Below are positions 1,231 to 63,672 of a DNA stretch of 64,000 bases, in pieces. The position numbers and the translations under genes are program-made. The first letter of the stretch is position 1; every line of letters begins with the position of its first letter. Below the pieces are notes generated by a model, which saw nothing but the letters and a program-made list of their open reading frames with translations, was not told the origin of the DNA and did no database searches. Origin of the DNA: Candidatus Saccharimonadales bacterium (GTDB lineage Bacteria; Patescibacteriota; Saccharimonadia; Saccharimonadales; EFPC-124); the NCBI GenBank assembly GCA_035457485.1, contig DATIBO010000006.1, forward strand, positions 306,659-370,658. The letters are read 5' to 3'.

Positions 1231-1878
1231 ATGAATTTAGTCAAGGCGTTACTGGTTTTTGCTACTTTTGCCGTCTTAACGTTGGCGAGTCCGATCTTGG
1301 CTCAAAGTTACGGATCGGGTGACTACGGAGCCTGTTTGTATGGCGAAGGCTGTCCTTCGTCTGGCGGTGGGGAATCTGGCGGCGGCACCACAACTGTTGC
1401 AACTCCGGCCGGGCTACAGGTTTCGATAAATCTAACTAACGGCCAAACGATTCCGGCTACTGGCTACCAGGTAATCGTTACGCCGCTAAATGGCCAGGGA
1501 TCCAGCTTTAAATATGTGGAATTTTTTGTCGATGGTAAATTGGCCGCAAGTATTGCGCCGGATCCTAACGGAACTGCGTATTGGTTTTGGGATGTCGTAA
1601 AATATCCCGGAACAACTCTAAAAGTTATTGTTTACGACCAAGATGGACAAGCGACAACGTATACTTTTACGGTTAAGATTGCCACGACTCCTACCGGCGT
1701 AACAAGCAAACCGACTCCAATACAAAAGGATTTAGGTTTTTTTGAACAAATCTTTGGCTATATAGCAGAAAACCCCTGGACTTGGGCTGTAGTGGTAGGT
1801 GTTCCGCTATCTATTTGGTGGATAACCCTTATTATTAGCCGACTGAGACACCGCACGCCTACTGGTTGGCAGTCTTGA
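1231..1878 (+). CDS. Secreted, C-terminally membrane-anchored protein with an Ig-like beta domain
   Basis: Track ORF. It has an N-terminal signal peptide (ALLVFATFAVLTLASPILA), a Gly/Ser linker and a C-terminal TM followed by a basic tail (SRLRHR). Confidence 0.6.
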   Translation: MNLVKALLVFATFAVLTLASPILAQSYGSGDYGACLYGEGCPSSGGGESGGGTTTVATPAGLQVSINLTNGQTIPATGYQVIVTPLNGQGSSFKYVEFFVDGKLAASIAPDPNGTAYWFWDVVKYPGTTLKVIVYDQDGQATTYTFTVKIATTPTGVTSKPTPIQKDLGFFEQIFGYIAENPWTWAVVVGVPLSIWWITLIISRLRHRTPTGWQS

Positions 1879-1892
1879 CTATAGAGTGCTAA
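1866..1892. promoter_or_regulatory. CIRCE-like HrcA operator upstream of hrcA
   Basis: TTGGCAGTC-N9-GAGTGCTAA versus the consensus TTAGCACTC-N9-GAGTGCTAA. The right arm is perfect and the left arm has 2 mismatches. The spacer holds a TTGACT -35-like hexamer. Confidence 0.6.
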
Positions 1893-1910: not shown

Positions 1911-2606
1911 ATGACCGAGCGACAAGCGCGGATTTTAAGCGCAATTATCGAACAATATGCCGAAGTGGCAGTTCCAGTAGGATCTGTTACTCTTGCAAAG
2001 CTTTTTAATGTAAGTTCGGCGACGCTGCGTTCAGAGATGTCTCAACTCGAGGAGCTTGGATTTATCACGCAGCCTCATACAAGCGCAGGCCGAATCCCGA
2101 CTGATAAAGGTTATCGTTTTTACGTTAATCAAATTAGCGGAGCTCAGCAACAGCCGGATCGCAGTGTCAAAGCCATAGAGGCGCGGGTTTCTAACTATTC
2201 TTCTCACGCTGATCGAGCCATACGCAGCGCTGTAGATAGTTTGGTTGAACTTACGCACAATTTGGGCCTAGCCACAATCGGTGACCAGCTTTATATGAGC
2301 GGCATGGGTAATTTATTCGGTCAGCCGGAGTTTGCCAGCGGCCAACATGTTCGTCAGGTGGCAACCTTACTAGATAATCTTGAGCCATGGTTGCGAGAGA
2401 CCGCGCCAAACGAGCCTTTGAATGTTTACATCGGAACAGAGAACCCAATTGGCAAAGCCAGCGGTTGCACACTTATTATTAGTCGTTTCCGTTCACCATA
2501 CTCGGATAGCAGCTATATTGGGGTGCTCGGTCCAACAAGGCAAAGCTACGGTAGAGTTATGAACTTAGTGAGTCATGCCGGACGAATGTTAGAGGAGGTA
2601 CTTTAG
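1911..2606 (+). CDS. hrcA: Heat-inducible transcription repressor HrcA (short form, 231 aa)
   Basis: N-terminal winged-helix region RQARILSAIIEQYAEVAVPVGS...LRSEMSQLEELGFITQPHTSAGRIPTDKGYRFYV is typical of HrcA. It is followed by grpE. Confidence 0.85.
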   Translation: MTERQARILSAIIEQYAEVAVPVGSVTLAKLFNVSSATLRSEMSQLEELGFITQPHTSAGRIPTDKGYRFYVNQISGAQQQPDRSVKAIEARVSNYSSHADRAIRSAVDSLVELTHNLGLATIGDQLYMSGMGNLFGQPEFASGQHVRQVATLLDNLEPWLRETAPNEPLNVYIGTENPIGKASGCTLIISRFRSPYSDSSYIGVLGPTRQSYGRVMNLVSHAGRMLEEVL

Positions 2607-2716
2607 TGGAGATCTTTATTGCTGCGCTAATTGCGTTATCTTGCGTTGCCATTTACATGGTTTTTTCGCCAAACAGCGAGAGCTTTTTTGATCAACTTAA
2701 GAAAGGTAAGAAATGA
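2606..2716 (+). CDS. 36-aa single-TM mini-protein between hrcA and grpE
   Basis: The GTG overlaps the hrcA TAG by 1 nt, with GAGGAGG 7 nt upstream. The stop overlaps the grpE ATG (ATGA). Translation: VEIFIAALIALSCVAIYMVFSPNSESFFDQLKKGKK. Confidence 0.4.
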   Translation: MEIFIAALIALSCVAIYMVFSPNSESFFDQLKKGKK

Positions 2717-3153
2717 AGAAAAACGATAGTCAAATACAAGAGCTGACAAATGATTTACAACGTGTACGCGCGGATTTTGAAAACTACCGCAAACGCATGG
2801 AGATCGAAAAACTGACCTATGCCGATGCTGCTAAAGCCGCGACCGTTTTAAAATTGTTGCCAGTTATCGACAATATCGACCGAGCTGTGGCGCATATTCC
2901 GGCTGAGCTTACTAATAACAAATGGGCGCAAGGTGTTGTGGGTCTTAATAAAAATCTGGAAAAGTCGCTAGATGAGCTAGGTCTAACGCGAATTAACGCC
3001 GAAGTTGGTGTTGATTTTAATCCTGAACTTCATGAAGCAATCAGCATGGAAGACGAAGGTGGCGATCACGAAGTTATCGCAGAAGAACTGCGCCCTGGTT
3101 ATAAACTTGGCGAGAATGTAATCCGGCCAAGTATGGTGCGGGTTAAGAAATAA
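2713..3153 (+). CDS. grpE: Nucleotide exchange factor GrpE
   Basis: Track ORF with GrpE-type sequence (RVRADFENYRKRMEIE...LLPVIDNIDRA...HEA). Chaperone-operon context. Confidence 0.9.
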   Translation: MKKNDSQIQELTNDLQRVRADFENYRKRMEIEKLTYADAAKAATVLKLLPVIDNIDRAVAHIPAELTNNKWAQGVVGLNKNLEKSLDELGLTRINAEVGVDFNPELHEAISMEDEGGDHEVIAEELRPGYKLGENVIRPSMVRVKK

Positions 3154-3255
3154 TGAATCAGAACTCACATGATCAAGCTTGCTGGGCTACTTTAAATTTA
3201 CTTTGCACATAAAATTGGTATATATTTTTATTATCCTACCAAGGAGGTGATTAAT

Positions 3256-3411
3256 GTGGGTGTTTGTGGTGGTTGTAGCGGTCAGCGCACTGTGCCGTGT
3301 CAAGGACCGTGCAGTGGGACAGGGTTTATCCCTGGTACCAATATCCCGTGTCCGAAGTGCAACGGGAGTGCACGGATGACCTGTCCTTACTGCGCTGGCA
3401 AAAGTAGCTGA
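3256..3411 (+). CDS. 51-aa Cys-rich mini-protein with four DnaJ-type CxxCxG zinc-finger-like motifs
   Basis: Not in the track. GTG start 8 nt after AGGAGG. Translation: VGVCGGCSGQRTVPCQGPCSGTGFIPGTNIPCPKCNGSARMTCPYCAGKSS. An alternative overlapping ATG frame at 3254 is less patterned. Confidence 0.55.
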   Translation: MGVCGGCSGQRTVPCQGPCSGTGFIPGTNIPCPKCNGSARMTCPYCAGKSS

Positions 3412-3552
3412 TTTTAAGCTACTGCAGTAATGCATGTTAGGCCACTGTGACAAACACCGATCCTTAACGGATCTGCCATCGGCGGCTCTGCTATATTGGA
3501 GCTAAAGGCCGGTATGGCGGCGGTTGAGGATGTAAGGGGCCTTAATCGCTAA

Positions 3553-3590
3553 CCTGGTGGTGTCGTGATTTGCGACGCCACCAGGTTTTT
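3553..3590 (+). terminator. Rho-independent terminator
   Basis: A 13-bp stem (CCTGGTGGTGTCG / CGACGCCACCAGG, one G-U pair) followed by TTTTT. Confidence 0.65.
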
Positions 3591-3663
3591 ATAGTACTTA
3601 TTTTATTTTTTAAGGTTTTGTCGTAATATTTTTTAAGTCCCTTTTGTGAGAGGGGGTGAAAAA

Positions 3664-3816
3664 ATGCCCAACAAGAATTGCGGCAGATGCGGCGGTTCTG
3701 GATGGAGGCGATGCTCAAACCCTCAATGCCGAAGTGGCTGGGTGACCGGCCCTAACGGCGACAGCGCTCCGTGCGGCAAGTGCGGCGGCGCTGGCGGAGA
3801 AAGCTGCGGCTGCTAG
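3664..3816 (+). CDS. 50-aa Cys-rich mini-protein with CxxCxGxG motifs (DnaJ zinc-finger-like)
   Basis: Not in the track. ATG follows GAGAGGGGGTG. Translation: MPNKNCGRCGGSGWRRCSNPQCRSGWVTGPNGDSAPCGKCGGAGGESCGC. GC-rich. Confidence 0.6.
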   Translation: MPNKNCGRCGGSGWRRCSNPQCRSGWVTGPNGDSAPCGKCGGAGGESCGC

Positions 3817-4068
3817 TTGGCCATGGAGGCCGACAGGTGGTAGGTGGCATTTCTACCGTCAAACAACTGTCGGAATAGGTTGCTTTGCTGACTTCCAGAC
3901 AGTGCAGTAGTTTAGTACTGCTGCGGGATCTCCTGCTGGCGCCAAGTTGGGTGTTGGCAGGAGATCTTAATACTCGATTTTATTTGAACAAAAGCGTATT
4001 TATGTTATAGTTTTGTTGCAAGAAAGACTTAGCACGTTCATATCCATCACCGAACTTCGAGGTGTGCA

Positions 4069-4464
4069 ATGACCAAGTTCTCCGACCTGCTCTCCCAGAT
4101 ATGGGAAGCGCTCCCGACGATCTTCGACTTCTCGCGCGGCTACGACGTGGCCTTCGCCGGCAGCCTCGGCCTAACTCTCATCATGTGGGGCGTCTTCGCG
4201 ATCTGCGCCGGCCTGAACATGCGTAACGGCTATGGCAACGCCCCGGTTTCCACCACCGGTAGCTTCGCCTTCAACATGCTCGGGCTGACCGCCCTGATGA
4301 TCGCCGGCTACCTGATATGGGGTCGCTTCGGCGAGATCGTCATCGATGCGGTTGCCAGCGGATCGCCGGACATGGCCGTCCAGGCGCTGGGAACTTGCCT
4401 GGCCGCAGTTGTCGGCGCCATGTTCTGTCACATCTTCCTGACGAACAGCCTGGCGCGCATGTGA
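4069..4464 (+). CDS. GC-rich 131-aa integral membrane protein (about 4 TM), unknown function
   Basis: Track ORF with GAGGTG upstream and almost exclusively G/C-ending codons, unlike neighbouring grpE and dnaK. Confidence 0.7.
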   Translation: MTKFSDLLSQIWEALPTIFDFSRGYDVAFAGSLGLTLIMWGVFAICAGLNMRNGYGNAPVSTTGSFAFNMLGLTALMIAGYLIWGRFGEIVIDAVASGSPDMAVQALGTCLAAVVGAMFCHIFLTNSLARM

Positions 4465-4471
4465 TAACTGA

Positions 4472-4499
4472 CGGGGCCCGATCTTTGGGTCGGGCCCCG
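4472..4499 (+). terminator. GC-rich hairpin after the membrane-protein gene
   Basis: CGGGGCCCGA-N8-TCGGGCCCCG, a perfect 10-bp stem with a weak T-tract. Confidence 0.5.
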
Positions 4500-4534
4500 G
4501 ACGGTCTTTCTTGCAAGATCATTGAAATTATTAA

Positions 4535-4561
4535 TTGGCACTCTTGACTAGTGAGTGCCAA
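4535..4561. promoter_or_regulatory. CIRCE operator 1 upstream of dnaK
   Basis: TTGGCACTC-N9-GAGTGCCAA, a perfect inverted repeat. The spacer carries TTGACT, with TATACT 18 nt downstream. Confidence 0.7.
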
Positions 4562-4580
4562 TTTTTTTATACTAAAATAG

Positions 4581-4607
4581 TTAGCAATCCATGCGAGAGA
4601 TTGCTAA
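4581..4607. promoter_or_regulatory. CIRCE-like operator 2 upstream of dnaK
   Basis: TTAGCAATC-N9-GATTGCTAA, a perfect inverted repeat with CIRCE-like arms 19 nt after operator 1. Confidence 0.55.
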
Positions 4608-4654: not shown

Positions 4655-6538
4655 ATGGGAAAAATTATTGGAATCGACTTAGGTACAACTAACAGCGCGA
4701 TGGCTTACTTGGTTGCAGGCAAGCCTGAGGTTATTACAAACGCCGAAGGAAATCGCACGACTCCTAGTGTGGTTGCGATCAATAAAAACGGCGAGCGCCT
4801 CGTAGGCCAAGTTGCTCAACGTCAACGCGTAACTAACGCAAAAAATACAATTTATGGTGTAAAGCGTTTGATCGGCCGCAAGTTTGACAGCGATGAAATT
4901 CAAAAAGACCTGCACCTAATGCCTTACGAAATCGTAAAAGCTGGCGACGGCGTAAAAGTAAAAATGGGCGACAAAGAATATAGCCCCGAAGAAGTTAGCG
5001 CCATGATTTTGGCAAAACTCAAAGCAGATGCCGAAGCCTTTTTGGGCGAAAAAGTTACCGAAGCCGTTATTACAGTTCCGGCCTACTTTGATGATAGCCA
5101 GCGCCAAGCTACAAAAGACGCTGGTAAAATTGCCGGCCTTGAGGTTAAACGTATTATTAACGAACCAACTGCTGCAGCCTTGGCTTATGGACTCGAGAAG
5201 AAAAAAGAAGAAAAAATTGCTGTATTCGACCTTGGTGGTGGTACGTTTGACGTCTCTATCTTGGAACTTGGCGACGGCGTATTTGAAGTTAAAAGCACTA
5301 ACGGGGACACTCACTTAGGTGGTGAAGACTTTGACAACCGCATTATGAACTACTTTATGGAAGAGTTCAAAAAAGAGCACGGTGTTGACCTTAAGGGCGA
5401 CAACGCAGCCATGCAGCGATTAAAAGACGAGGCCGAAAAAGCTAAAAAGGAACTTTCGAGCACAAACGAGACCGAGATTAACTTGCCGTTCTTGACTGCT
5501 GACGCCGATGGTCCAAAGCACTTTGAAACCAAATTAACTCGCGCAAAACTCGAAGAGCTAGTTGCCGACTTGATCGAAAAAACAGTTGCCCCCTGCGAAA
5601 AAGCCCTAAAAGACGCAGGATTGAGCGCGAGTGACATCAACGAGATTGTTCTTGTTGGTGGTATGACTCGTATGCCGGCAGTTGTTGAAAAAGTTAAAAA
5701 GATCTTTGGCAAAGAGCCGCTAAAAGGCGTTAACCCAGATGAAGTTGTAGCGATTGGTGCTGCGATTCAAGGTGGAGTTTTGGCCGGTGATGTAAAAGAT
5801 GTGTTGCTTTTGGATGTAACTCCGTTGAGCCTTGGAATCGAAACCATGGGCAGCGTTACTACAAAATTAATCGAGCGCAACAGCACAATTCCTACGAGCA
5901 AGTCCGAGGTGTTTAGCACGGCTGCCGACAATCAGCCACAGGTAGAAATCCACGTTTTGCAAGGTGAGCGCGAGATGGCCGCTGATAACAAATCGCTTGG
6001 TAAGTTTGTACTAGATGGCATCGCGCCAGCGCCGCGTGGTGTTCCACAGATTGAAGTTACCTTTAACCTAGACGCCAACGGGATTTTGAACGTTACGGCG
6101 AAAGACAAAGGCACTGGTAAAGAACAAAGCATTACGATCCAAAACAGCGGTAACTTAAGCAAGGACGACATTGAAAAGGCGCAAAAAGAGGCCGAAGCTC
6201 ACGCCGAAGAAGACAAAAAGAAGCGCGAAGCCGTAGACGCTAAAAACATGCTTGCGCAAACGATTTACCAAGCCGAAAAGTTGGTAGCAGACAATGCCGA
6301 TAAAATTAGCGATGACGACAAAAAAACGATTGAAGAAGCTGTAACTGAGGCTAAAAAACACGAAAATTCGACCGACAAAGATGAGATCGAAAAAGCACAA
6401 AAAGATCTAAACGACAAGATCATGCCTATTGGTGCTAAAATGTACGAGAATGCGCAAAAAGAAGCGAAAACCGAGGAGCCATCCGAAGGTAAAAAAGATG
6501 AACCAGTTGAAGGTGAAGTTGTAGACGAGAAAAAATAA
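4655..6538 (+). CDS. dnaK: Molecular chaperone DnaK (Hsp70)
   Basis: [17 protein letters not shown] and [10 protein letters not shown] signatures. 627 aa. Confidence 0.98.
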
Positions 6539-7244: not shown

Positions 7245-8351
7245 TTGGTGAGTAAGCGCGATTATTACGAAATTTTAGGTATTACAAAGTCAGCCTCGGC
7301 TGATGAGATTAAAAAAGCTTTTCGTAAGGCTGCCGTTAAGTATCACCCTGACAAAGGTGGTGACGAAGTTAAATTTAAAGAAGCCAACGAAGCCTACGAA
7401 GTTTTAAGTAATCCCGAAAAACGCCAGAGGTATGATCAGTTTGGTCATGCTGGGGTTGGCGGGAACGCTGGCGGAGGCGGAGGAGGAAATCCATTCGGCG
7501 GCGCAGGTGGGTACCAATATCAAAATATTAACTTTGATGATTTGGGTCTGGGTGATATCTTTGGTCAGTTTTTTGGTGGTGGCTCGGGTGGCGGTGATCG
7601 ACGACGCACCAGGCGCGGACAAGATTTAAGTGTAAATATAACGCTAACTTTTGAAGAAGCGATTTTCGGTGTAGAAAAGAAGATCGAGCTAAACACCGAA
7701 GATGTTTGTAAGCGTTGTAAGGGTGATGGTGCTGAGATCGGGTACAACTTACGCAACTGCACAACCTGCCATGGTAGCGGACAAATTAACCGAGCAATGA
7801 ATACGATTTTTGGACAAATCCAGCAAACCACAGAATGTACCACCTGTAATGGGCGCGGTAAGATTCCTGAAAAAGCTTGCTCGGCTTGTAACGGTCGCGG
7901 AATTACCCGCGAAGATCAAGAGCTTAAGCTTAAAATCCCGGCCGGAATTGATGACGGCGCAACAATTCGCCTAAACGGTCGTGGTCAAGCAGTACAGGGT
8001 GGCGAAAAAGGCGATTTATACGTAAGTGTAAAAGTTAAGCCGCACAAAAAGTTCACCCGCGAGGGCAACTTAATTATTAGCAGCGAAAAGATCGACATGG
8101 TAACTGCTGCCTTAGGGGGTGAGGTTGAAGTTGACACCGTGGATGGCGAAATAACCATGAAAATCCCAGCAGGCACACAGGGCGGAACTGACTTTAAATT
8201 GCCACATCATGGCGCGCCAAACTTGCGCAGCGGAAACAGAGGCGATCACATTGTCACCATTTATGTTGAAACTCCAACAAAGCTAAGTAAAAAGCAAAAA
8301 CAGCTGCTTGAGGAATTTAACGGGGCGAGCAAGCGCGGGTTCTTTTCTTAG
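7245..8351 (+). CDS. dnaJ: Molecular chaperone DnaJ
   Basis: J-domain (DYYEILG...KYHPDK), a G-rich linker and four CxxCxGxG repeats. The start is TTG at 7245 or GTG at 7248, after AGGAG. Confidence 0.95.
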
Positions 8352-29212: not shown

Positions 29213-29313
29213 GTTGTGTTGGGACCGGCCATCGTTTGCATAAACTTATCTTGCTTTTTTATAAGAAATGTTGTATAAAATATTTCTGGGAAACTAGTCA
29301 ACCGGAGGTAGAA

Positions 29314-29886
29314 ATGCACTGGGTTGTTCGAGCGGTTCTGACGGGGTCTATGCCACCGTTGAGTTCCGTCGAAAAGTCGGAGTACATCGAGAACTTCAAC
29401 GCGATTGCCGATCGGGTCACCAAGGTGACGTTGATCGAAGAGCAGAAGTCGGTGTACGCGCAGCGTAAGGCCTCGGGGCTCGACAACGCGCAGAAGAACG
29501 CGGCCGTCATGGCGAACATCGCTGTGGTTGCGGCGGGCATCATCGCCCTAATCAATGCCGACGTCAGTCTGGCGTCAATGGCGCTGGTCGCCACCTCGCT
29601 CGTCTTCATGATCCTCGCTGTGGTGATCTCGTACGTGATGTTCGCGCCCAAGTCCAAGAACTGGAAGCGTGCAAGTCGCAACGAGAACACCCGCCGGACA
29701 TCGCTCAAGCGAGTCCAAGCGGCCGCCAATGGCGATGATGCTCTTCTGGAGTACATATACCTCGAGGCGGTCGAAGGCGAGCATCACTGGAACTACCTGC
29801 TGCTACTGGAGCGCCGCGAGTTCGGGCTGATCTGCGTGCTGAGCGCGCTCGGCCTGATCCTGTCCGCGCTCAGCCTGCTCTTCTGA
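29314..29886 (+). CDS. GC-rich membrane protein (190 aa; cytosolic N-domain, central TM pair, C-terminal TM)
   Basis: Start moved to the ATG after CGGAGG. The first 26 track codons are AT-rich and unlike the rest. G/C-ending codons. Confidence 0.6.
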   Translation: MHWVVRAVLTGSMPPLSSVEKSEYIENFNAIADRVTKVTLIEEQKSVYAQRKASGLDNAQKNAAVMANIAVVAAGIIALINADVSLASMALVATSLVFMILAVVISYVMFAPKSKNWKRASRNENTRRTSLKRVQAAANGDDALLEYIYLEAVEGEHHWNYLLLLERREFGLICVLSALGLILSALSLLF

Positions 29887-29904
29887 GCGGGCGTTTCCCA
29901 CAGA

Positions 29905-29936
29905 CTCCGGTCCTGCGCAAGTGTGCGGGGCCGGAG
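29905..29936 (+). terminator. GC-rich hairpin after 29314-29886
   Basis: CTCCGG...CCGGAG outer stem with an inner GCGC/GTGC stem. No long T-tract. Confidence 0.45.
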
Positions 29937-30011
29937 TTAGGAAGAACTTATTTTGACAAAGAACATCATTTATTAGAAAATATTTCAGCACCAAATAGAA
30001 GGAGGTGCTGG

Positions 30012-30563
30012 ATGAGGAAAATCCTCATCGGACTAGCCGTGCTTAGCCTGGCGCTGAGCGGCTGTGCTATCCGCGACGAGGTCAACGAGACCACGGCCGA
30101 GATTCAGGCTGAGAACAGCCGGCAGGAACATCTGGCTCTGCTCGACAGTCTGATGTCTGGCAAGGGTTGGTACGGTTCCGGTCTCGACGCCAACGGTCGC
30201 GAGATCGCCCACGAGGAGCAGGCGGACGGCTCGTTCGCTTATCTGGTGGAGGTCGGTCACAACAACCGCTTTTGCCAGCCGGTGTTCATGATGGTGAGAA
30301 AGGCGACGGCCACAACCGAGACGAAGTTGGAGCCCAAGAACTGGGGTTTCAAGATCGTTCGACTTCAGCCGGAGCCGAAGACTCAACACTTGCCCACACT
30401 GGATCCGGTCGACGGCGAGATCCTGGCCAAGGACCTGCCTGCTGAGTGGAGGGTGATGGACCTGGATGCTGCGACCTACAAGAAGCAGCTCGAGGTGATC
30501 ACCGCCAATCCGCAGGGCGAGTCGCAGGAGCGGATCGCTAACCTCTGCAAGTCCAAGCGGTAA
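30012..30563 (+). CDS. GC-rich lipoprotein (183 aa)
   Basis: Lipobox LALSGC after a signal peptide (MRKILIGLAVLSLALSGC). AGGAGG upstream. Confidence 0.7.
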   Translation: MRKILIGLAVLSLALSGCAIRDEVNETTAEIQAENSRQEHLALLDSLMSGKGWYGSGLDANGREIAHEEQADGSFAYLVEVGHNNRFCQPVFMMVRKATATTETKLEPKNWGFKIVRLQPEPKTQHLPTLDPVDGEILAKDLPAEWRVMDLDAATYKKQLEVITANPQGESQERIANLCKSKR

Positions 30564-46399: not shown

Positions 46400-46516
46400 A
46401 TGAACTTCGACGAGGAGTACGAGGTCCCGGCCACGCAGGAGATCGGTGGCGTGGTGGAAATCACGCTCGGCTCGGCCGGCAACGACAAGAAGGACGACAC
46501 CCAGTACTGGGTGTGA
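46400..46516 (+). CDS. Lasso peptide precursor (38 aa; predicted 23-aa leader + 15-aa core)
   Basis: Not in the track, which shows a different frame. Translation: MNFDEEYEVPATQEIGGVVEITL|GSAGNDKKDDTQYWV. AAGGGGGTG lies 5-7 nt upstream. Thr at -2, Gly1 and Asp9. Immediately upstream of C-B1-B2. Confidence 0.8.
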   Translation: MNFDEEYEVPATQEIGGVVEITLGSAGNDKKDDTQYWV

Positions 46517-46524
46517 CGTCCGAA

Positions 46525-46556
46525 CCTCGAGGCCAGGCTTGCGCCTGGCCTCGAGG
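46525..46556 (+). promoter_or_regulatory. Perfect 14-bp GC hairpin between precursor and cyclase genes (attenuator/stabiliser)
   Basis: CCTCGAGGCCAGGC-TTGC-GCCTGGCCTCGAGG. No T-tract follows. Confidence 0.6.
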
Positions 46557-46579
46557 CCCCATCTACTCAAAGGAGTAAT

Positions 46580-48349
46580 ATGCAATGGGTTGCAGGGTTC
46601 TGGCCTCGACGAGACGCCATGAACAAACCTGTGGTTTTCCCAAAAAACTCACATGCCCACAATATGCTGTGGAATGTTGGGTACGAATGTACCGAGTTCC
46701 GTCGATTTAGCTCTGGTTCCACAACCGTCACGGTTGTAGGATCATGTCTGGCTACAGACGTCGAACTCAACGCCGCACTCCCAGCCGCCGATTCCGAGCG
46801 CTGGGAGATTTTTGCACAGTGGCCAGGTTCGTACATTGCCGTTGTGCAAAGAGCGCATGAAGCAGTAGTGATTACTGATCTTGCTGGGGCGAAACCGGTC
46901 TTCTGGGTAAAAACCGACTCTGGATGGTGGTGGTCGACAGCAGCGACACCTTTGGCGGCGTTGATGCGGTCAAAGGTTAACATTCGAGCACTTCTTACGC
47001 CTCTGATGGTGGCAGGAGTAGATGCGTGGGGCGGAGAAACGCCTTACGAGAAGGTGATGGTAGTTAAGCCGGGTTCGGTTCTTCGCCTGTCACATGACGG
47101 GCCGAAGGTCGAAACTTGGTATAAGCCAACGGTATTGTCGTTCGCCGAAGGGCAGCACAATTTCCGCGCCGCTCTCACTGATTCAGTCGGTCGGCGAGCA
47201 GCCCTAGGTGACATCTCTAGCGATTTGTCGGGAGGTATCGACTCAAGCCTTATTGCGCTGCTCGCAAGCCGCTTGACGGTTGTTCACGGAGCGACCTATG
47301 TTGATCCGTGGCAAAGAAACGATGACGCCGATTATGCTCGGCGCGTCGCAGGGTTCGGCGGAATCAGGCAAATTCTTGTCGAAGGCGACCAAACAACCAC
47401 TCACTACAGCGATCTCGATGAAGCGCCATTTACGGATACACCGTCGGCCGATGGGGTCTTGTTCGGCTACAACCGAGCAAAGCTTCAAGCTGTGAAGGCG
47501 GCGGGTTCTCGACACCATCTAACCGGAGCTGCGGGTGATTGCATGCTTTTGTCTCCCTACCCATGGGTGGCGGAGCTGTATAAGCACCAGCGGCTTCAGG
47601 CTCTCCGTTGGGCGCGCCAAGAAGCTCGGCGTCGTTTGACGTCAAGTCGGCGATTCATCCTCGCAACGCGTCGACTGGCTACAACATCATTTGCCAATGA
47701 AGCCGCAAGGCTGGCAGGCGGAGTTGAGGTGGCCGAAAAGACGGCATGGTCTTCAGTCTGCTGGCTTAAGTGGATGGAGTCCGCCATCTGGCTAACCGAA
47801 CAAGGTCGCTCGATGTTGTGTGGTCGTCTCGAGGAGATATCCTACGAGTTGGATCCGCCCGAGAATCCTGGCGCGAATCTCGATTGGCAAAGTCTTAGGG
47901 CTACGGCGATCGAGCGCACGACCGCGGTTGAGTTTGCGCGTTCCATTGGAATCACGCTCCACAATCCGTTTTTCGACACTCAGGTGATTGATGCTTGCCT
48001 GTCGATTCCGGGATATGAGCGTGCTCCCCTGGACACGTTTAAGCCGCTAGCAACGCTGGGCTTTATGGCAGAGTTGCCGGAGTTTTTGCGCCAGCGTCGC
48101 ACTAAGGGCGACTTTGCCGGCACGATGCTTCACGGTATTCTGTTTAACCAGCACTGGCTGAAGCGCATGATCGAAAGTTCGGCTCTGGTAGAAATGGGGT
48201 TGATCGACAGAGATCAGCTACGTCAAAGTGTTCAATCTGCGATTTACGGATTTGACACTCAGCTGCGCGGGATTCACCACCTGACTACGATCGAAATGTG
48301 GTTGAGGTCCCGCGATCTGCGTCCTACTGTTTGGTGGGAGATGCTGTGA
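46580..48349 (+). CDS. Lasso peptide cyclase (asparagine synthetase-like, C protein)
   Basis: 589 aa with the PP-loop ATP-pyrophosphatase motif DLSGGIDSS. AAGGAG RBS. Lasso cluster context. Confidence 0.85.
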   Translation: MQWVAGFWPRRDAMNKPVVFPKNSHAHNMLWNVGYECTEFRRFSSGSTTVTVVGSCLATDVELNAALPAADSERWEIFAQWPGSYIAVVQRAHEAVVITDLAGAKPVFWVKTDSGWWWSTAATPLAALMRSKVNIRALLTPLMVAGVDAWGGETPYEKVMVVKPGSVLRLSHDGPKVETWYKPTVLSFAEGQHNFRAALTDSVGRRAALGDISSDLSGGIDSSLIALLASRLTVVHGATYVDPWQRNDDADYARRVAGFGGIRQILVEGDQTTTHYSDLDEAPFTDTPSADGVLFGYNRAKLQAVKAAGSRHHLTGAAGDCMLLSPYPWVAELYKHQRLQALRWARQEARRRLTSSRRFILATRRLATTSFANEAARLAGGVEVAEKTAWSSVCWLKWMESAIWLTEQGRSMLCGRLEEISYELDPPENPGANLDWQSLRATAIERTTAVEFARSIGITLHNPFFDTQVIDACLSIPGYERAPLDTFKPLATLGFMAELPEFLRQRRTKGDFAGTMLHGILFNQHWLKRMIESSALVEMGLIDRDQLRQSVQSAIYGFDTQLRGIHHLTTIEMWLRSRDLRPTVWWEML

Positions 48350-48615
48350 AGCTTTCTCAGGATGCATACCCTGTGTTCGACAAGCTTACGGGATCGGCGT
48401 ACGTTCTCCTGCTCAGGACTGGCAAGTGGCGTTTTTTTAATCCGTCGGCCGGAAAGCTGTTAAAGCAACTAGCCGACGGTGTAGATCTGGAAACGGCTCT
48501 ACGAAACGTCGCCGCAGGATACAGGAGGCCGGTTGACGTCGATGTCTTAAGGATCGACATGGAGCCCGTACTTCGGGCAATGATCGACCTCGGAATCCTA
48601 GAGGAGAACGAGTGA
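48346..48615 (+). CDS. PqqD-like RiPP recognition element (lasso B1 protein)
   Basis: 89 aa from a GTG overlapping the cyclase TGA (GTGA). The track gives a longer in-frame ORF from 48298. Size and position fit B1. Confidence 0.7.
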   Translation: MKLSQDAYPVFDKLTGSAYVLLLRTGKWRFFNPSAGKLLKQLADGVDLETALRNVAAGYRRPVDVDVLRIDMEPVLRAMIDLGILEENE

Positions 48616-49028
48616 CAGTTAATATGCTGCCGCCAGATAGTTCTGGCAGTGGGCTGAGCCTTGGCTACAAAGTCCTGGGTTTTCTGAGCCTTCTTTTGGC
48701 GGTCACTTCACTTCGAGTTCTGTCCTTGGCGACGTTGGTTACCACCTTGATCAAGGTGAAGCCTGATCGTGCAGCCAGCTCAAGGCAGGCAGAGGACTAC
48801 ATCCGCGCTATTCAGTGGGCAGGTAATTTCTACTTCGGTAGAGTTGCCTGCCTAGAAAGAGCTGTCGGTGTCGCAATCCTCGCGGCCATGGTCCGCAGGC
48901 GGGTTACAAGTTGCATTGGTGCTCGCTTTCGACCCAACGAGTTCCATGCTTGGACTGAGGTCGACGGCACTCCGGTCATGGAGATCGAAAGTGCCGATTG
49001 GCCCTACCAAGCCGCGGTAAGGTTTTAG
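48612..49028 (+). CDS. Transglutaminase-like cysteine protease (lasso leader peptidase, B2 protein)
   Basis: 138 aa with Cys in GRVACLERA and His/Asp in EFHAWTEVDG. The GTG overlaps the B1 stop. Confidence 0.8.
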   Translation: MTVNMLPPDSSGSGLSLGYKVLGFLSLLLAVTSLRVLSLATLVTTLIKVKPDRAASSRQAEDYIRAIQWAGNFYFGRVACLERAVGVAILAAMVRRRVTSCIGARFRPNEFHAWTEVDGTPVMEIESADWPYQAAVRF

Positions 49029-59822: not shown

Positions 59823-60854
59823 TTACTTGGCCGGCGCCTTCGGGTCGGGGATGGTGATCCCCAGCCCGGCTCCCCCGAGGGAGAGCAGGCCGTCCGGCAG
59901 GGCGTTCAGCGCGTCGATCTGTGCGCAGCTCGGGCACGTGTTGTACCCGCGCTGGCGCGCCTCGTTCGCGTCGGCGTCCAGCACGGCCTTGGCCTTGGCC
60001 GCCTGCGCGGCGTTGGCGTCGGCCCAGGCGGCCAGCGTCTTGTCGATGCTCGTCTGAACCTTGTCGCTGATGACCAGTTCGACGCTGTTGAACACGACCT
60101 TGATCTCGCCGACCCAGCCGCCGAGCTTGGCCAGCTCTTCCTCGAGCCGCTTCTGCACGGCCGTCTGGATCTTCTCCCGGTTCGACGTCGCCTCAGGCGT
60201 CATCGCATCCGGGTTGATCACCTCCACGGGAGTCTGACCAGGCTTGACCTCGGTGGTGGTCTGCGGCTTGACCAGCTTGCACTTCGGGTTGAGCGCAGTG
60301 CAGTCGTACTTGACGATCTCGTCGCGGATGGCCGCGTCCGAGGCCTTGATCAGCACCGCGTCCAGGAAGGCGCGCCACCCCTTGAGCTCGTCGTACGAGT
60401 CGGACGGGAAGTAGAACTCCCCGTCGGCGCCCCGGTACTTGCGCGAGCCGTAGCTCGCGTCGAACTCCTTCAGCTTCTCGGCGTCACCCGTGATCGTGAT
60501 CAGCATCTGCCCCTTGATGCCGACGTCGATGCCGTCGCGCGTGGGGAAGGCGTTGTAGTTCACGCCGGGCTCGTCGGTCTTGTATGCGCCGACGAAGTCG
60601 ATGGGCTGCGGGGAACTGGGGTAGTACCGGACCTTCGACCACCAGCCGGTCCACTTGATGTTGGAGCCGGATCCGATGGTCATGAAGGGCTTACGGTCGT
60701 CGAACGGGCCGCCGTTGCGGACGACCGCGATCTGGCCGCTCTCGGTACTGGTGTAGCTGTCGAGAACGCCGACGAAGCCGACGCTACCGATCAGCGCGAG
60801 GAGGACGAAGAAGCCCTTCGTGGGCCCCGATCGCTCTCTCAGCCAGTCGATCAT
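59823..60854 (-). CDS. GC-rich membrane-anchored SPFH/band-7 (prohibitin-like) domain protein
   Basis: N-terminal TM, then GQIAVVRNGG...-type SPFH start, and a C-terminal Ala/Lys-rich coiled region. Start at the ATG after GGGAG. Strongly G/C-ending codons. Confidence 0.6.
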   Translation of the reverse strand: MIDWLRERSGPTKGFFVLLALIGSVGFVGVLDSYTSTESGQIAVVRNGGPFDDRKPFMTIGSGSNIKWTGWWSKVRYYPSSPQPIDFVGAYKTDEPGVNYNAFPTRDGIDVGIKGQMLITITGDAEKLKEFDASYGSRKYRGADGEFYFPSDSYDELKGWRAFLDAVLIKASDAAIRDEIVKYDCTALNPKCKLVKPQTTTEVKPGQTPVEVINPDAMTPEATSNREKIQTAVQKRLEEELAKLGGWVGEIKVVFNSVELVISDKVQTSIDKTLAAWADANAAQAAKAKAVLDADANEARQRGYNTCPSCAQIDALNALPDGLLSLGGAGLGITIPDPKAPAK

Positions 60855-61063
60855 GGCAAACTCCCAGTTGTGCATGAGCAATACGGTTGCTCACCCGGAG
60901 AAGATTAAAATCCCCTCATAAAAAAGCCAGAAAGCCCTGGCCGTCTTAAGAAGAGATTTTTGTCTTCAGCGATCTAAAATATACAACTTTTTTTACTAAA
61001 CGTCAACTATTTTGTATATTGTGCACTTCTCCTTTTAAGCTCGATCTGTTATCCTATAGGTCG

Positions 61064-62548: not shown

Positions 62549-63082
62549 TCAGCAACCGCCGACTGTGTTGAGTGGGACGCGGAGCTGATCGGCGTACCAC
62601 CGTCGAGTGTGTGGCCGAGTGTATGGCACGGTCGGAGTCTGAAGTTCCTGACGCTGCGACTGCGTGAGTGTGGTCAGGTAGTTCATCAGAATCCGATTGG
62701 AGTGCGAGTTGTTGGGCAGCCGGCGGGCGAACAACTGTTCGCACCAGGCATCCCACATCACTCGGTTGATCAGGTACACGTTCTTGTGCGAGCCGTTGAT
62801 GACCCCGTTGGTCAGTTCGCGAACAGTTCCGCGAGCGATGATGACGCCGAGCACCAGCGCGATGACTGACGTGATCGCCCAGAACGCAGTGCGCCCGTTA
62901 CCGGTGATCTCGAACAGCTTCACGATACAGAAGATGATGATCTGAAAGATCAGCATCGAGAGGCCCGGCACCCAGCCGTGGTTGTTGTAAGCCCAGGCCT
63001 TGAGCGAGCGGGGCTTGCGGCTGATAGCCACATACGTGTTCATGTGCTTCCGATCTGCTCGTAGACGAACAAAACTTGCCAT
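62549..63082 (-). CDS. GC-rich 2-TM membrane protein (177 aa), unknown function
   Basis: Track ORF with G/C-ending codons. An AT-rich, SD-less upstream region has TATGAT 5 nt before the ATG. Confidence 0.55.
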   Translation of the reverse strand: MASFVRLRADRKHMNTYVAISRKPRSLKAWAYNNHGWVPGLSMLIFQIIIFCIVKLFEITGNGRTAFWAITSVIALVLGVIIARGTVRELTNGVINGSHKNVYLINRVMWDAWCEQLFARRLPNNSHSNRILMNYLTTLTQSQRQELQTPTVPYTRPHTRRWYADQLRVPLNTVGGC

Positions 63083-63124
63083 ACTATATCATAATTTTAT
63101 TAAAATGTACATAAGTTCAGACTT

Positions 63125-63152
63125 CCAACTGCCAGCACGGGGCGGCAGTTGG
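63125..63152 (-). terminator. Hairpin after the 63169-63672 gene
   Basis: CCAACTGCC-N10-GGCAGTTGG, a 9-bp stem with no T-tract. Confidence 0.4.
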
Positions 63153-63168
63153 GTAGTCCTCGTTCTGG

Positions 63169-63672
63169 TCAGACGTTCTTGGCTGGGAAGGCGTAGCTGA
63201 GTAGGTTCTGCAGGGCGTTGTTCCGGTCTTCGCTGGTGCTTTCGGCCGTGTTGACCGACCACCAGAAGCCGGCATTCTGCGCCAGAATGCGCTCTGCCGT
63301 GAGCACATCGATCGGACCGACCTCGGTGGCCCGAGCCCGCATCATTTGGAGCCACAGCTTGTGTAGATCCCGGCGGATGATCGTGATGCCTGCGACCCGG
63401 TTACGGCTGATGACGTCTTCTGCGACGACCGTCATCCCGAAGCCCATGAACATCACGGTGAAGATCGCGACGACCAAGACGGCCAAGTACTCAAGGAGCG
63501 AGTACGCGTCTCCCGCGTTTGCGCGCTTGATCAGCCCATTCGTGATCAGGCCGAACACAAGAACGCCCCATGTCATCAGATGCGCGAAGCGGTGGTTGAA
63601 CACCCACTTCATCACGCTGAGGCGGTCGCCGATTGCGATACGATCGCCCTCTCGCCAAAAGACATTTTTCAC
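63169..63672 (-). CDS. GC-rich 2-TM membrane protein (167 aa), unknown function
   Basis: Track ORF with a GTG start after GGAGGAGGG. Its architecture is similar to 62549-63082. Confidence 0.55.
   Translation of the reverse strand: MKNVFWREGDRIAIGDRLSVMKWVFNHRFAHLMTWGVLVFGLITNGLIKRANAGDAYSLLEYLAVLVVAIFTVMFMGFGMTVVAEDVISRNRVAGITIIRRDLHKLWLQMMRARATEVGPIDVLTAERILAQNAGFWWSVNTAESTSEDRNNALQNLLSYAFPAKNV

Follow-up and report, generated by a model that had tools for sequence, protein, structure and literature searches.

Two short cysteine-knuckle ORFs between grpE and dnaK of a Saccharimonadales bacterium: candidate orphan genes for zinc-knuckle proteins

In a 64 kb stretch of the genome of a Candidatus Saccharimonadales bacterium (referred to as the window; open reading frames, ORFs, are on the + strand unless marked (-)), the space between grpE and dnaK holds two ORFs of about 50 codons, ORF1 and ORF2, the products of which would consist essentially of regularly spaced pairs of cysteines. 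This raises the question of whether the two ORFs are genes at all, which kind of protein they would encode, and whether such proteins would have a part in the chaperone system amid which they lie. The explanation favoured here, to which about an even chance is given, is that ORF1 and ORF2 are real, lineage-specific, and probably acquired orphan genes for protein-binding zinc-knuckle proteins. Nothing but their position connects them with this system, and a chaperone role is hypothetical.

Cysteine pattern and sequence affinities

Both ORFs had been proposed in a first-pass annotation made from the letters alone, and the sequence and the ORF list agree with the translations quoted there for 3256-3411 and 3664-3816 and with the presence of four Cys pairs in each. 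Eight Cys, arranged as four pairs (knuckles), make up 16% of the roughly 50 amino acids (aa) of either product, and both ORFs begin right before knuckle 1 and end right after knuckle 4. The first Cys of successive knuckles are 11/17/10 residues apart in ORF1 and 11/20/11 in ORF2, the whole module measuring around 45 residues. Concerning the motifs, the claim that several knuckles follow the exact CxxCxGxG spacing holds for two of them, both situated in ORF2 (CGRCGGSG and CGKCGGAG, accompanied by CSNPQC as CxxxxC and a C-terminal CGC as CxC), whereas none is found in ORF1, which possesses three CxxCxG motifs and one CxxxCxGxG and whose knuckle sequences include CGGCS, CPKCN, and CPYCA. Within ORF2, a stretch of 23 nt is shared between knuckles 1 and 3 with 83% identity, and all eight Cys codons are TGC.

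This Cys pattern is not due to chance. The window contains 685 six-frame ORF segments that measure 40 aa or more, and the combination of at least three Cys pairs with at least two CxxCxG motifs is restricted to ORF1, ORF2, and DnaJ among them; four pairs in one ORF of this minimum length came up in only 3 of 2000 dinucleotide-preserving shuffles of the segment 3150-4070.

The sub-threshold Pfam matches of ORF1 all belong to the DnaJ-cysteine-rich clan, namely GRXCR1-2_C (17.8 bits; cutoff 26), BSD2_CRD (PF25436; 17.1 bits; cutoff 27), and Anti-TRAP (PF15777; 15.4 bits; cutoff 32), and with NF058604 RtpA it scores 12.1 bits (cutoff 65). ORF2 has no match in Pfam and none to the Anti-TRAP families, and searches of the NCBIfam and defence-system libraries gave no match above threshold for either ORF. 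In a sequence search of the PDB, the best match of ORF1 is the cysteine-rich (CR) domain of Escherichia coli DnaJ (1exk; E 0.024), followed by BSD2 and anti-TRAP, and the inner pair of ORF2 (CSNPQC...CGKC) resembles the zinc ribbon of eS31 (E 0.011); residues 6-44 of ORF2 align with the CR domain of a phage DnaJ. A copy of the zinc domain of the resident dnaJ was rejected as the source of the two ORFs, the similarity being at the level of motifs only.

The collections searched covered 5.8 billion proteins (word-index search), 1.84 billion representatives (full HMMER scan), and genomes, metagenomes, phages, plasmids, and viruses. In the HMMER scan, ORF1 gave 12 matches at E<=1e-3 (the best cited being P0002 with 5.3e-7), three of which (P0001, P0005, and P0010) were discarded as repeat artefacts without Cys. 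The remaining nine matches are to longer proteins of 128-463 aa, in which CxxCxGxG knuckles occur, mostly as repeats; the BSD2-like match P0009 aligns with ORF1 residues 6-50 in a single stretch of 36 bits, with 51% identity and all four knuckles covered. The matched proteins themselves carry signals of PF00684, BSD2_CRD, or Anti-TRAP. When ORF1, ORF2, and ten database modules are aligned (alignment A1), the eight Cys stand in register, with seven columns invariant and the eighth conserved in at least 90%. Furthermore, a hidden Markov model (HMM) of the module, built from ten database segments without any sequence of the window, was scored against 1082 six-frame ORFs of the window. ORF1 reaches 44.3 bits, a circular value since the rows of the model were chosen with ORF1, whereas ORF2 constitutes an independent test (15.6 bits; E 7e-4) and equals the per-domain score of the resident DnaJ, which served as positive control (22.8 bits in total); the next-best background ORF scores 5.3 bits. 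As far as sequence can tell, compact free-standing four-knuckle modules of DnaJ-CR/BSD2 type, outside all curated families, is a fair description of ORF1 and ORF2.

Each product would essentially be one such compact module, for which two Zn(Cys)4 centres are predicted in a nested hairpin, with knuckles 1 and 4 outside and knuckles 2 and 3 inside, as in the DnaJ CR domain. The zinc-stabilised scaffold may bind a partner protein in the manner of anti-TRAP and BSD2, whether as a small adaptor, as an inhibitor, or as a holdase. This kind of action is proposed because the characterised relatives without a J-domain work by binding: the target is TRAP for anti-TRAP and client proteins for BSD2 and ORANGE. 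A direct stimulation of the DnaK ATPase is not expected, since a J-domain is lacking.

Expression signals and reading frame

The first-pass annotation had credited each ORF with a good Shine-Dalgarno sequence (SD) and a downstream hairpin and had placed both between grpE and dnaK outside the existing annotation. These observations were borne out, and the two ORFs are apparently missing from the NCBI annotation as well. The energies of the duplexes with the anti-SD (Table 1) lie beyond those of all 32 resident genes checked (median -2.2, best -12.3 kcal/mol), and values of -12 kcal/mol or lower are reached at 0.35% of random positions; the host genes of the window mostly possess no recognisable SD. 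ORF1 and ORF2 are among the top five combinations of SD and start codon in the 64 kb, the others belonging to a foreign gene with a high GC content at third codon positions (GC3) at 30012-30563, to a precursor-like ORF at 46400-46516, and to an ORF of 26 codons. As a separate observation, several of the strongest SDs of the window sit on small or foreign-looking genes (ORF1, ORF2, 30012-30563, 46400-46516, and 63169-63672).

The terminator behind ORF1 consists of a 17-bp stem with 9 GC pairs and a TTTTTAT tail, and the 3' region that it closes folds with a z-score of -4.98, with 0 of 200 shuffles folding equally well; the 3' region of ORF2 folds with a z-score of -6.39. These 3' regions (3412-3592 and 3817-3968) contain four to five hairpins each, an unusual degree of structure; an Rfam search of the region returned no family, and both structured regions occur only once in the window. 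ORF1 and ORF2 fit a description as expression units of their own, each with an AT-rich or promoter-like 5' stretch, a strong SD, a coding part of around 50 codons, and a 3' end rich in structure. A reading of the hairpins as attC sites of integron cassettes was rejected: the stem at 3551-3587 is GC-rich and followed by a T run, as is typical of terminators, R''/R' pairing beyond AAC/GTT is absent, no integrase was seen, and two of the three cassettes (those of ORF1 and of ORF3, the next ORF downstream) have a promoter-like site of their own. Equally rejected was an origin of ORF1 and ORF2 as remnants of one larger repeat gene, the spacers being devoid of convincing knuckle remnants in any frame.

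At ORF1, the GTG start codon at 3256 is in frame with a further GTG at 3247 inside the SD, from which the product would count 54 aa. The antisense frame of ORF1 is likewise open. An ATG at 3254 opens the +1 frame; we infer that GTG 3256 is the more likely start, because ORF2 shares the architecture of ORF1 and has an unambiguous ATG.

Locus, conservation, and origin

The gene order at the locus is CIRCE (the HrcA operator), hrcA, grpE, ORF1, ORF2, ORF3, two CIRCE, dnaK, a NUDIX gene, a 96-aa ORF, and dnaJ (Table 1). CIRCE matches in the window are confined to positions 1866, 4535, and 4581 (3 versus 0.03 expected), and ORF2 lies behind the terminator 3551-3587. Between the stop codon of grpE and ORF1, no hairpin or terminator is found (fold z -0.53), such that ORF1 may be co-expressed with hrcA-grpE by read-through, for which the CIRCE promoter of hrcA could be the driver. 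ORF2 and ORF3 are not obviously controlled by HrcA, since the CIRCE sites of dnaK are situated downstream of the island; the first copy of this tandem pair overlaps the -35 box of dnaK. Because the CR domain of the resident DnaJ is intact, the two ORFs do not stand in for a lost zinc domain. In the upstream part of the locus, a hydrophobic mini-ORF of 36 aa (2606-2716, +; VEIFIAALIALSCVAIYMVFSPNSESFFDQLKKGKK) with a strong SD (-13.2) fills the gap between hrcA and grpE exactly, overlapping the stop codon of the former and the start codon of the latter, and may be another overlooked small gene of the heat-shock operon.

Table 1. Features of the hrcA-dnaJ locus in the window
Feature	Position	Strand	Remarks
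CIRCE (HrcA operator) 5' of hrcA	1866-1892	+	TTGGCAGTC-N9-GAGTGCTAA, 2 mismatches to consensus
hrcA	1911-2606	+	Pfam HrcA; upstream flank
grpE	2713-3153	+	Pfam GrpE; protein HSE29291.1, Candidatus Saccharimonadales bacterium
Promoter-like site 5' of ORF1	3197-3226	+	TTTACT-18-TATATT, 9/12 matches
SD of ORF1, AAGGAGGTGA	3241-3250	+	GGAGG 8 nt before GTG 3256; -15.5 kcal/mol
ORF1, 51 aa	3256-3411	+	four Cys knuckles C4/C7, C15/C19, C32/C35, C42/C45
Structured 3' region of ORF1	3412-3592	+	ends in intrinsic terminator, stem 3551-3587 plus T run
SD of ORF2, GAGGGGGTGA	3650-3659	+	4 nt before ATG 3664; -15.4 kcal/mol
ORF2, 50 aa	3664-3816	+	four Cys knuckles C6/C9, C17/C22, C37/C40, C48/C50
Structured 3' region of ORF2	3817-3968	+	five consecutive hairpins; last a 19-bp stem, ~3924-3968 (inverted repeat)
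Third cassette, with ORF3	3984-4516	+	promoter-like site 3984-4011; ORF3 4069-4464; terminator 4472-4499
Two CIRCE operators	4535-4561, 4581-4607	+	dnaK promoter at 4544-4573; downstream of all three cassettes
dnaK	4655-6538	+	PF00012; downstream flank
dnaJ	7245-8351	+	PF00684; intact four-motif CR domain

The word-index search found nothing for ORF1 or ORF2, and GrpE-anchored synteny scans of the genome and metagenome collections yielded relatives of at most 50% identity, none of which possesses the two ORFs. In the nearest relative (GrpE 50% identical), an unrelated ORF of 146 aa is situated between grpE and dnaK, and at five other dnaK loci the module HMM matches full-length DnaJ only. Since the spacers of the relatives differ, the grpE-dnaK spacer appears to be variable and the two ORFs to be lineage-specific. 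Searches of the collections of phages, plasmids, and viruses with tblastn and blastn returned only a phage DnaJ and an ORF of plasmid pT75-VIM. The latter ORF (CP113227.1, ~151.6-152.0 kb), which encodes about 130 aa with many CxxCxGxG knuckles and has no gene in the PLSDB table, lies downstream of a gene for a TPR protein and represents another free-standing multi-knuckle protein.

Concerning composition, GC3 amounts to 0.43 in reference genes of the genome, 0.51 in ORF1, 0.68 in ORF2, and 0.86 in ORF3. The suggestion of GC-rich, acquired DNA is supported by these values for ORF2 and ORF3, whereas the GC richness of ORF1 is mostly located at codon position 2 (0.73), reflecting its content of Cys, Gly, and Pro. 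ORF3 encodes a membrane orphan of 131 aa (HSE29292.1), for which a homologue search returned only the protein itself, and is clearly foreign. A perfect 13-nt inverted repeat at 4016-4028 and 4504-4516 (TTGCAAGAAAGAC / GTCTTTCTTGCAA) encloses ORF3 together with its terminator and closes the whole ORF3 transcript in the predicted fold; it could constitute a mobile cassette or an element for the pairing of mRNA ends. Further genes of high GC3 (0.76-0.94 versus 0.43) are situated at 29236-30563, 59823-60881 (-), and 62549-63672 (-), and include a lipoprotein-like ORF (30012-30563, with the strongest SD of the window) and an SPFH/Band_7 protein. This distribution suggests repeated gene acquisition from high-GC donors. 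The pool of foreign genes so acquired seems to include ORF2 and ORF3, and perhaps ORF1 as well. ORF1 and ORF2, together with the foreign ORF3, would then be horizontally acquired cargo in a variable grpE-dnaK spacer and not part of the core Hsp70 machine.

Elsewhere in the window, an island richer in GC (46400-49028, +) contains an apparent lasso-peptide cluster. It comprises the precursor-like ORF mentioned above (38 aa; MNFDEEYEVPATQEIGGVVEITLGSAGNDKKDDTQYWV; SD -15.2 kcal/mol), a cyclase of the Asn_synthase type (46580-48349; PF00733, 4e-29), a weakly PqqD-like ORF (48298-48615; E 0.007), and a transglutaminase-like peptidase (48612-49028; PF13471, 7.5e-16), and would be a cluster for a ribosomally synthesised and post-translationally modified peptide (RiPP) in a Saccharimonadales genome.

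Weighing of explanations and comparison with known systems

Several findings weigh against the view that ORF1 and ORF2 are real genes for zinc-knuckle proteins. No orthologue of either was found in any collection searched, and the search for conservation and synteny in related genomes that the first-pass annotation had recommended ended with an unrelated spacer ORF in the closest relative. The only other copy is located on a Logan contig (run SRR25158331), which originates from the same sample, is 100% identical over the shared 11.4 kb, and is therefore uninformative on polymorphism. Both ORFs miss every curated family threshold; in particular, the recommended PF00684 profile (gathering cutoff 32.7 bits) matches neither at E<=10, whereas it does match the resident DnaJ, and the four CxxCxGxG repeats expected of a PF00684 CR domain are present in neither. 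The proposed likeness to the DnaJ zinc finger is retained as far as the sequence affinities lead to the DnaJ cysteine-rich clan and nowhere else, but it does not extend to the family profile, and with hhalign only 19 columns (87% probability) and 14 columns (72% probability) align against six DnaJ CR domains. The AlphaFold2 models have mean pLDDT values (predicted local distance difference test) of 59 for ORF1 and 64.5 for ORF2 (75-79 in the inner hairpin of ORF2), and a Foldseek search with both models gave no match at E<=0.001, the top, non-significant one being BSD2 (6ekb). Furthermore, the NCBI numbers of GrpE (HSE29291.1) and ORF3 (HSE29292.1) are consecutive, such that apparently no protein is annotated between them, and the Logan/Prodigal gene call at ORF1 took the +1 frame (ATG 3254, 3254-3379, 41 aa). 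The codon-usage likelihood gives the Cys frame no advantage over other frames; it is blind to the frame here because the Cys/Gly composition is extreme. Finally, HVO_2753 of Haloferax volcanii, also a micro-protein with four knuckles, binds one zinc and not two (PMC11241148).

Some of these findings would equally be accounted for if ORF1 and ORF2 were chance or decaying ORFs without a functional product, i.e., remnants of a multi-CxxCxGxG repeat gene or non-coding acquired DNA: orthologues and an NCBI annotation are missing, codon statistics are uninformative, the antisense frame of ORF1 is open too, and proteins with many repeats of this motif, which are common, might be a source. A small but appreciable probability is assigned to this explanation; against it, the ORFs are bounded by knuckles 1 and 4 and preceded at the correct spacing by SDs of the top 0.35%, two independent top-tier sites of this kind being hard to reconcile with it, all eight Cys are present in both ORFs, an ORF with four Cys pairs is seen in only 3/2000 shuffles, and the spacers show no convincing knuckle remnants. 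It might also be that the true product at ORF1 is the 41-aa peptide of the +1 frame (MWVFVVVVAVSAL...), the Cys frame being incidental, as its ATG follows the GGAGG of the same strong SD by 6 nt and a gene was predicted in this frame in the Logan assembly. Yet this peptide matches no family or database entry and is the sole member of its cluster, whereas the Cys frame, in which eight Cys fall into register with those of other modules, gave database matches with E-values as low as 5e-7 and shares its architecture with ORF2, where the ATG is unambiguous; the +1 frame is thus held to be highly improbable. A role of the products as metal-buffering or thiol-redox peptides, metallothionein-like or as a zinc-thiolate switch, would agree with the 16% Cys in around 50 aa, and thiol-oxidoreductase activity has been reported for DnaJ CR domains. 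It is considered very unlikely, however, as an ordered series of knuckles followed by Gly is the pattern of structural zinc sites, bacterial metallothionein families gave no match, and no metal-resistance genes are situated nearby.

The position within the locus suggests another possibility, namely that ORF1 and ORF2 encode dedicated Hsp70 accessory factors that are co-regulated under heat shock and act in trans, like DnaJ zinc centres or like DafA and Hep1, by binding clients or DnaK. The site between grpE and dnaK, the hrcA-grpE transcript under CIRCE control, which could take in ORF1 in the absence of a terminator, and the motif type, which is that of the DnaJ CR domain, are in line with it, and small partners of Hsp70 set a precedent: the DafA of Thermus thermophilus is part of a complex with DnaK and DnaJ (PMC3727329), and Hep1, a zinc-finger protein, escorts mitochondrial Hsp70 (PMC3461517). 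Nevertheless, the two ORFs were encountered at this locus in no relative examined, are not derived from the resident dnaJ, and have a clearly foreign neighbour in ORF3; ORF2 and ORF3 have SDs and 3' hairpins of their own (joined by a promoter-like site in the case of ORF3), the CIRCE pair of dnaK follows only downstream of the three cassettes, and the resident DnaJ CR domain is complete, such that there is nothing to complement. Accessory factors are accordingly regarded as unlikely, and the narrower form of this possibility, in which ORF1, perhaps also ORF2, would be a heat-shock-co-expressed co-chaperone made of a zinc centre only, i.e., a trans-acting version of the DnaJ CR domain working on clients or DnaK, as quite unlikely. 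Secreted Cys-rich peptides or RiPPs, which the first-pass annotation had put on a par with chaperone modules, might be cysimiditide-like, SCIFF/ranthipeptide-like, or a bacteriocin pair with ORF3 for immunity or export. Precursors of cysimiditides, known only from high-GC Actinomycetota, carry two CXXCXGXG motifs (bioRxiv 10.1101/2024.10.02.616296); ORF2 has two exact motifs and a donor-like GC3, the small membrane protein ORF3 is adjacent, and a lasso-type RiPP cluster exists elsewhere in the genome. However, there is neither a leader or follower, as the knuckles span residues 4-45 of 51 in ORF1 and 6-50 of 50 in ORF2, nor a signal peptide on either ORF, and no methyltransferase, radical-SAM, YcaO, Lan, or peptidase-ABC gene or other maturase lies within ~10 kb. 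In addition, ORF1 has no Asp and the only Asp of ORF2 (Asp33) precedes Ser and not Gly, the motifs of ORF2 are 23 residues apart versus 14-22 in cysimiditides, and the three genes form separate transcription units. Peptides of this kind are therefore deemed highly improbable.

If orphan zinc-knuckle proteins are indeed translated from ORF1 and ORF2, they would rank with the smallest DnaJ-like zinc modules that have all four knuckles, the module making up the entire protein. They would also indicate that standard annotation of candidate-phyla-radiation genomes overlooks micro-proteins or mistakes their frame, as exemplified by the +1-frame call at 3254-3379, that such genomes take up small foreign genes which retain the strong ribosome-binding sites of their donors, and that the grpE-dnaK spacer receives small foreign cargo. 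Were the co-chaperone interpretation true, a new class of Hsp70 accessory micro-protein would be at hand, in an ultra-small episymbiotic bacterium. Chaperone biology would gain a finding of real interest if an interaction with DnaK or clients were demonstrated; otherwise, ORF1 and ORF2 would be another pair of orphan zinc-finger micro-proteins.

Among known systems, the DnaJ CR domain (PF00684, 1exk) shares with ORF1 and ORF2 the four Cys knuckles and the Gly after the second Cys. Despite this similarity, there are clear differences: The two ORFs are free-standing, of around 50 aa, and without J-domain, G/F region, or C-terminal domains, they are compact (~45 residues, whereas the CR domain of the resident DnaJ has a spacing of 17/26/14 over ~65 residues), and only 2/8 of their knuckles are exact CxxCxGxG. 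BSD2 and the plant DnaJ-like zinc finger proteins (PF25436; PSA2, ORANGE) equally possess a compact four-knuckle module without J-domain and bind clients, and the best full-length alignment of ORF1 is with the BSD2-like module of P0009; however, these proteins are eukaryotic, are targeted to plastids, and comprise additional regions (130-300 aa in total), and no context is shared. Anti-TRAP (RtpA of Bacillus, 53 aa) is a bacterial free-standing protein with DnaJ-like knuckles that acts purely by binding a protein. It has two knuckles, one zinc, and a C-terminal oligomerisation part, whereas ORF1 and ORF2 consist of four knuckles alone and lack a TRAP context.

The cysimiditides are likewise small, with two CXXCXGXG and a zinc-anchored hairpin (bioRxiv 10.1101/2024.10.02.616296), to which ORF2 comes close with its two exact motifs and high-GC-like codons, but they require an adjacent aspartimidylating methyltransferase and an Asp-Gly loop, neither of which was found among the flanking genes or in the ORFs here. 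SCIFF peptides and ranthipeptides differ by a leader or follower and a radical-SAM enzyme or maturase, none of which occurs within ~10 kb of the ORFs. Closer in build are the C(P)XCG micro-proteins of Haloferax volcanii, which are single domains of <70 aa with Cys knuckles only, the genes of which are often overlooked (PMC11241148), and among which HVO_2753 has four knuckles. They are archaeal, however, are grouped by their motif and not by homology, and show no detectable sequence relation; the knuckles CGRCG and CGKCG of ORF2 fit the definition of this class, whereas those of ORF1 do not. DafA and Hep1/Zim17 resemble the ORFs as small partners of Hsp70, Hep1 also as a zinc-finger protein, but without sequence similarity, such that the analogy is functional only. 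Anti-TRAP, BSD2-type proteins, cysimiditides, and C(P)XCG micro-proteins are thus the known kinds with which ORF1 and ORF2 can be compared, and the new form is a protein that consists of one complete four-knuckle module alone, here in a Saccharimonadales genome.

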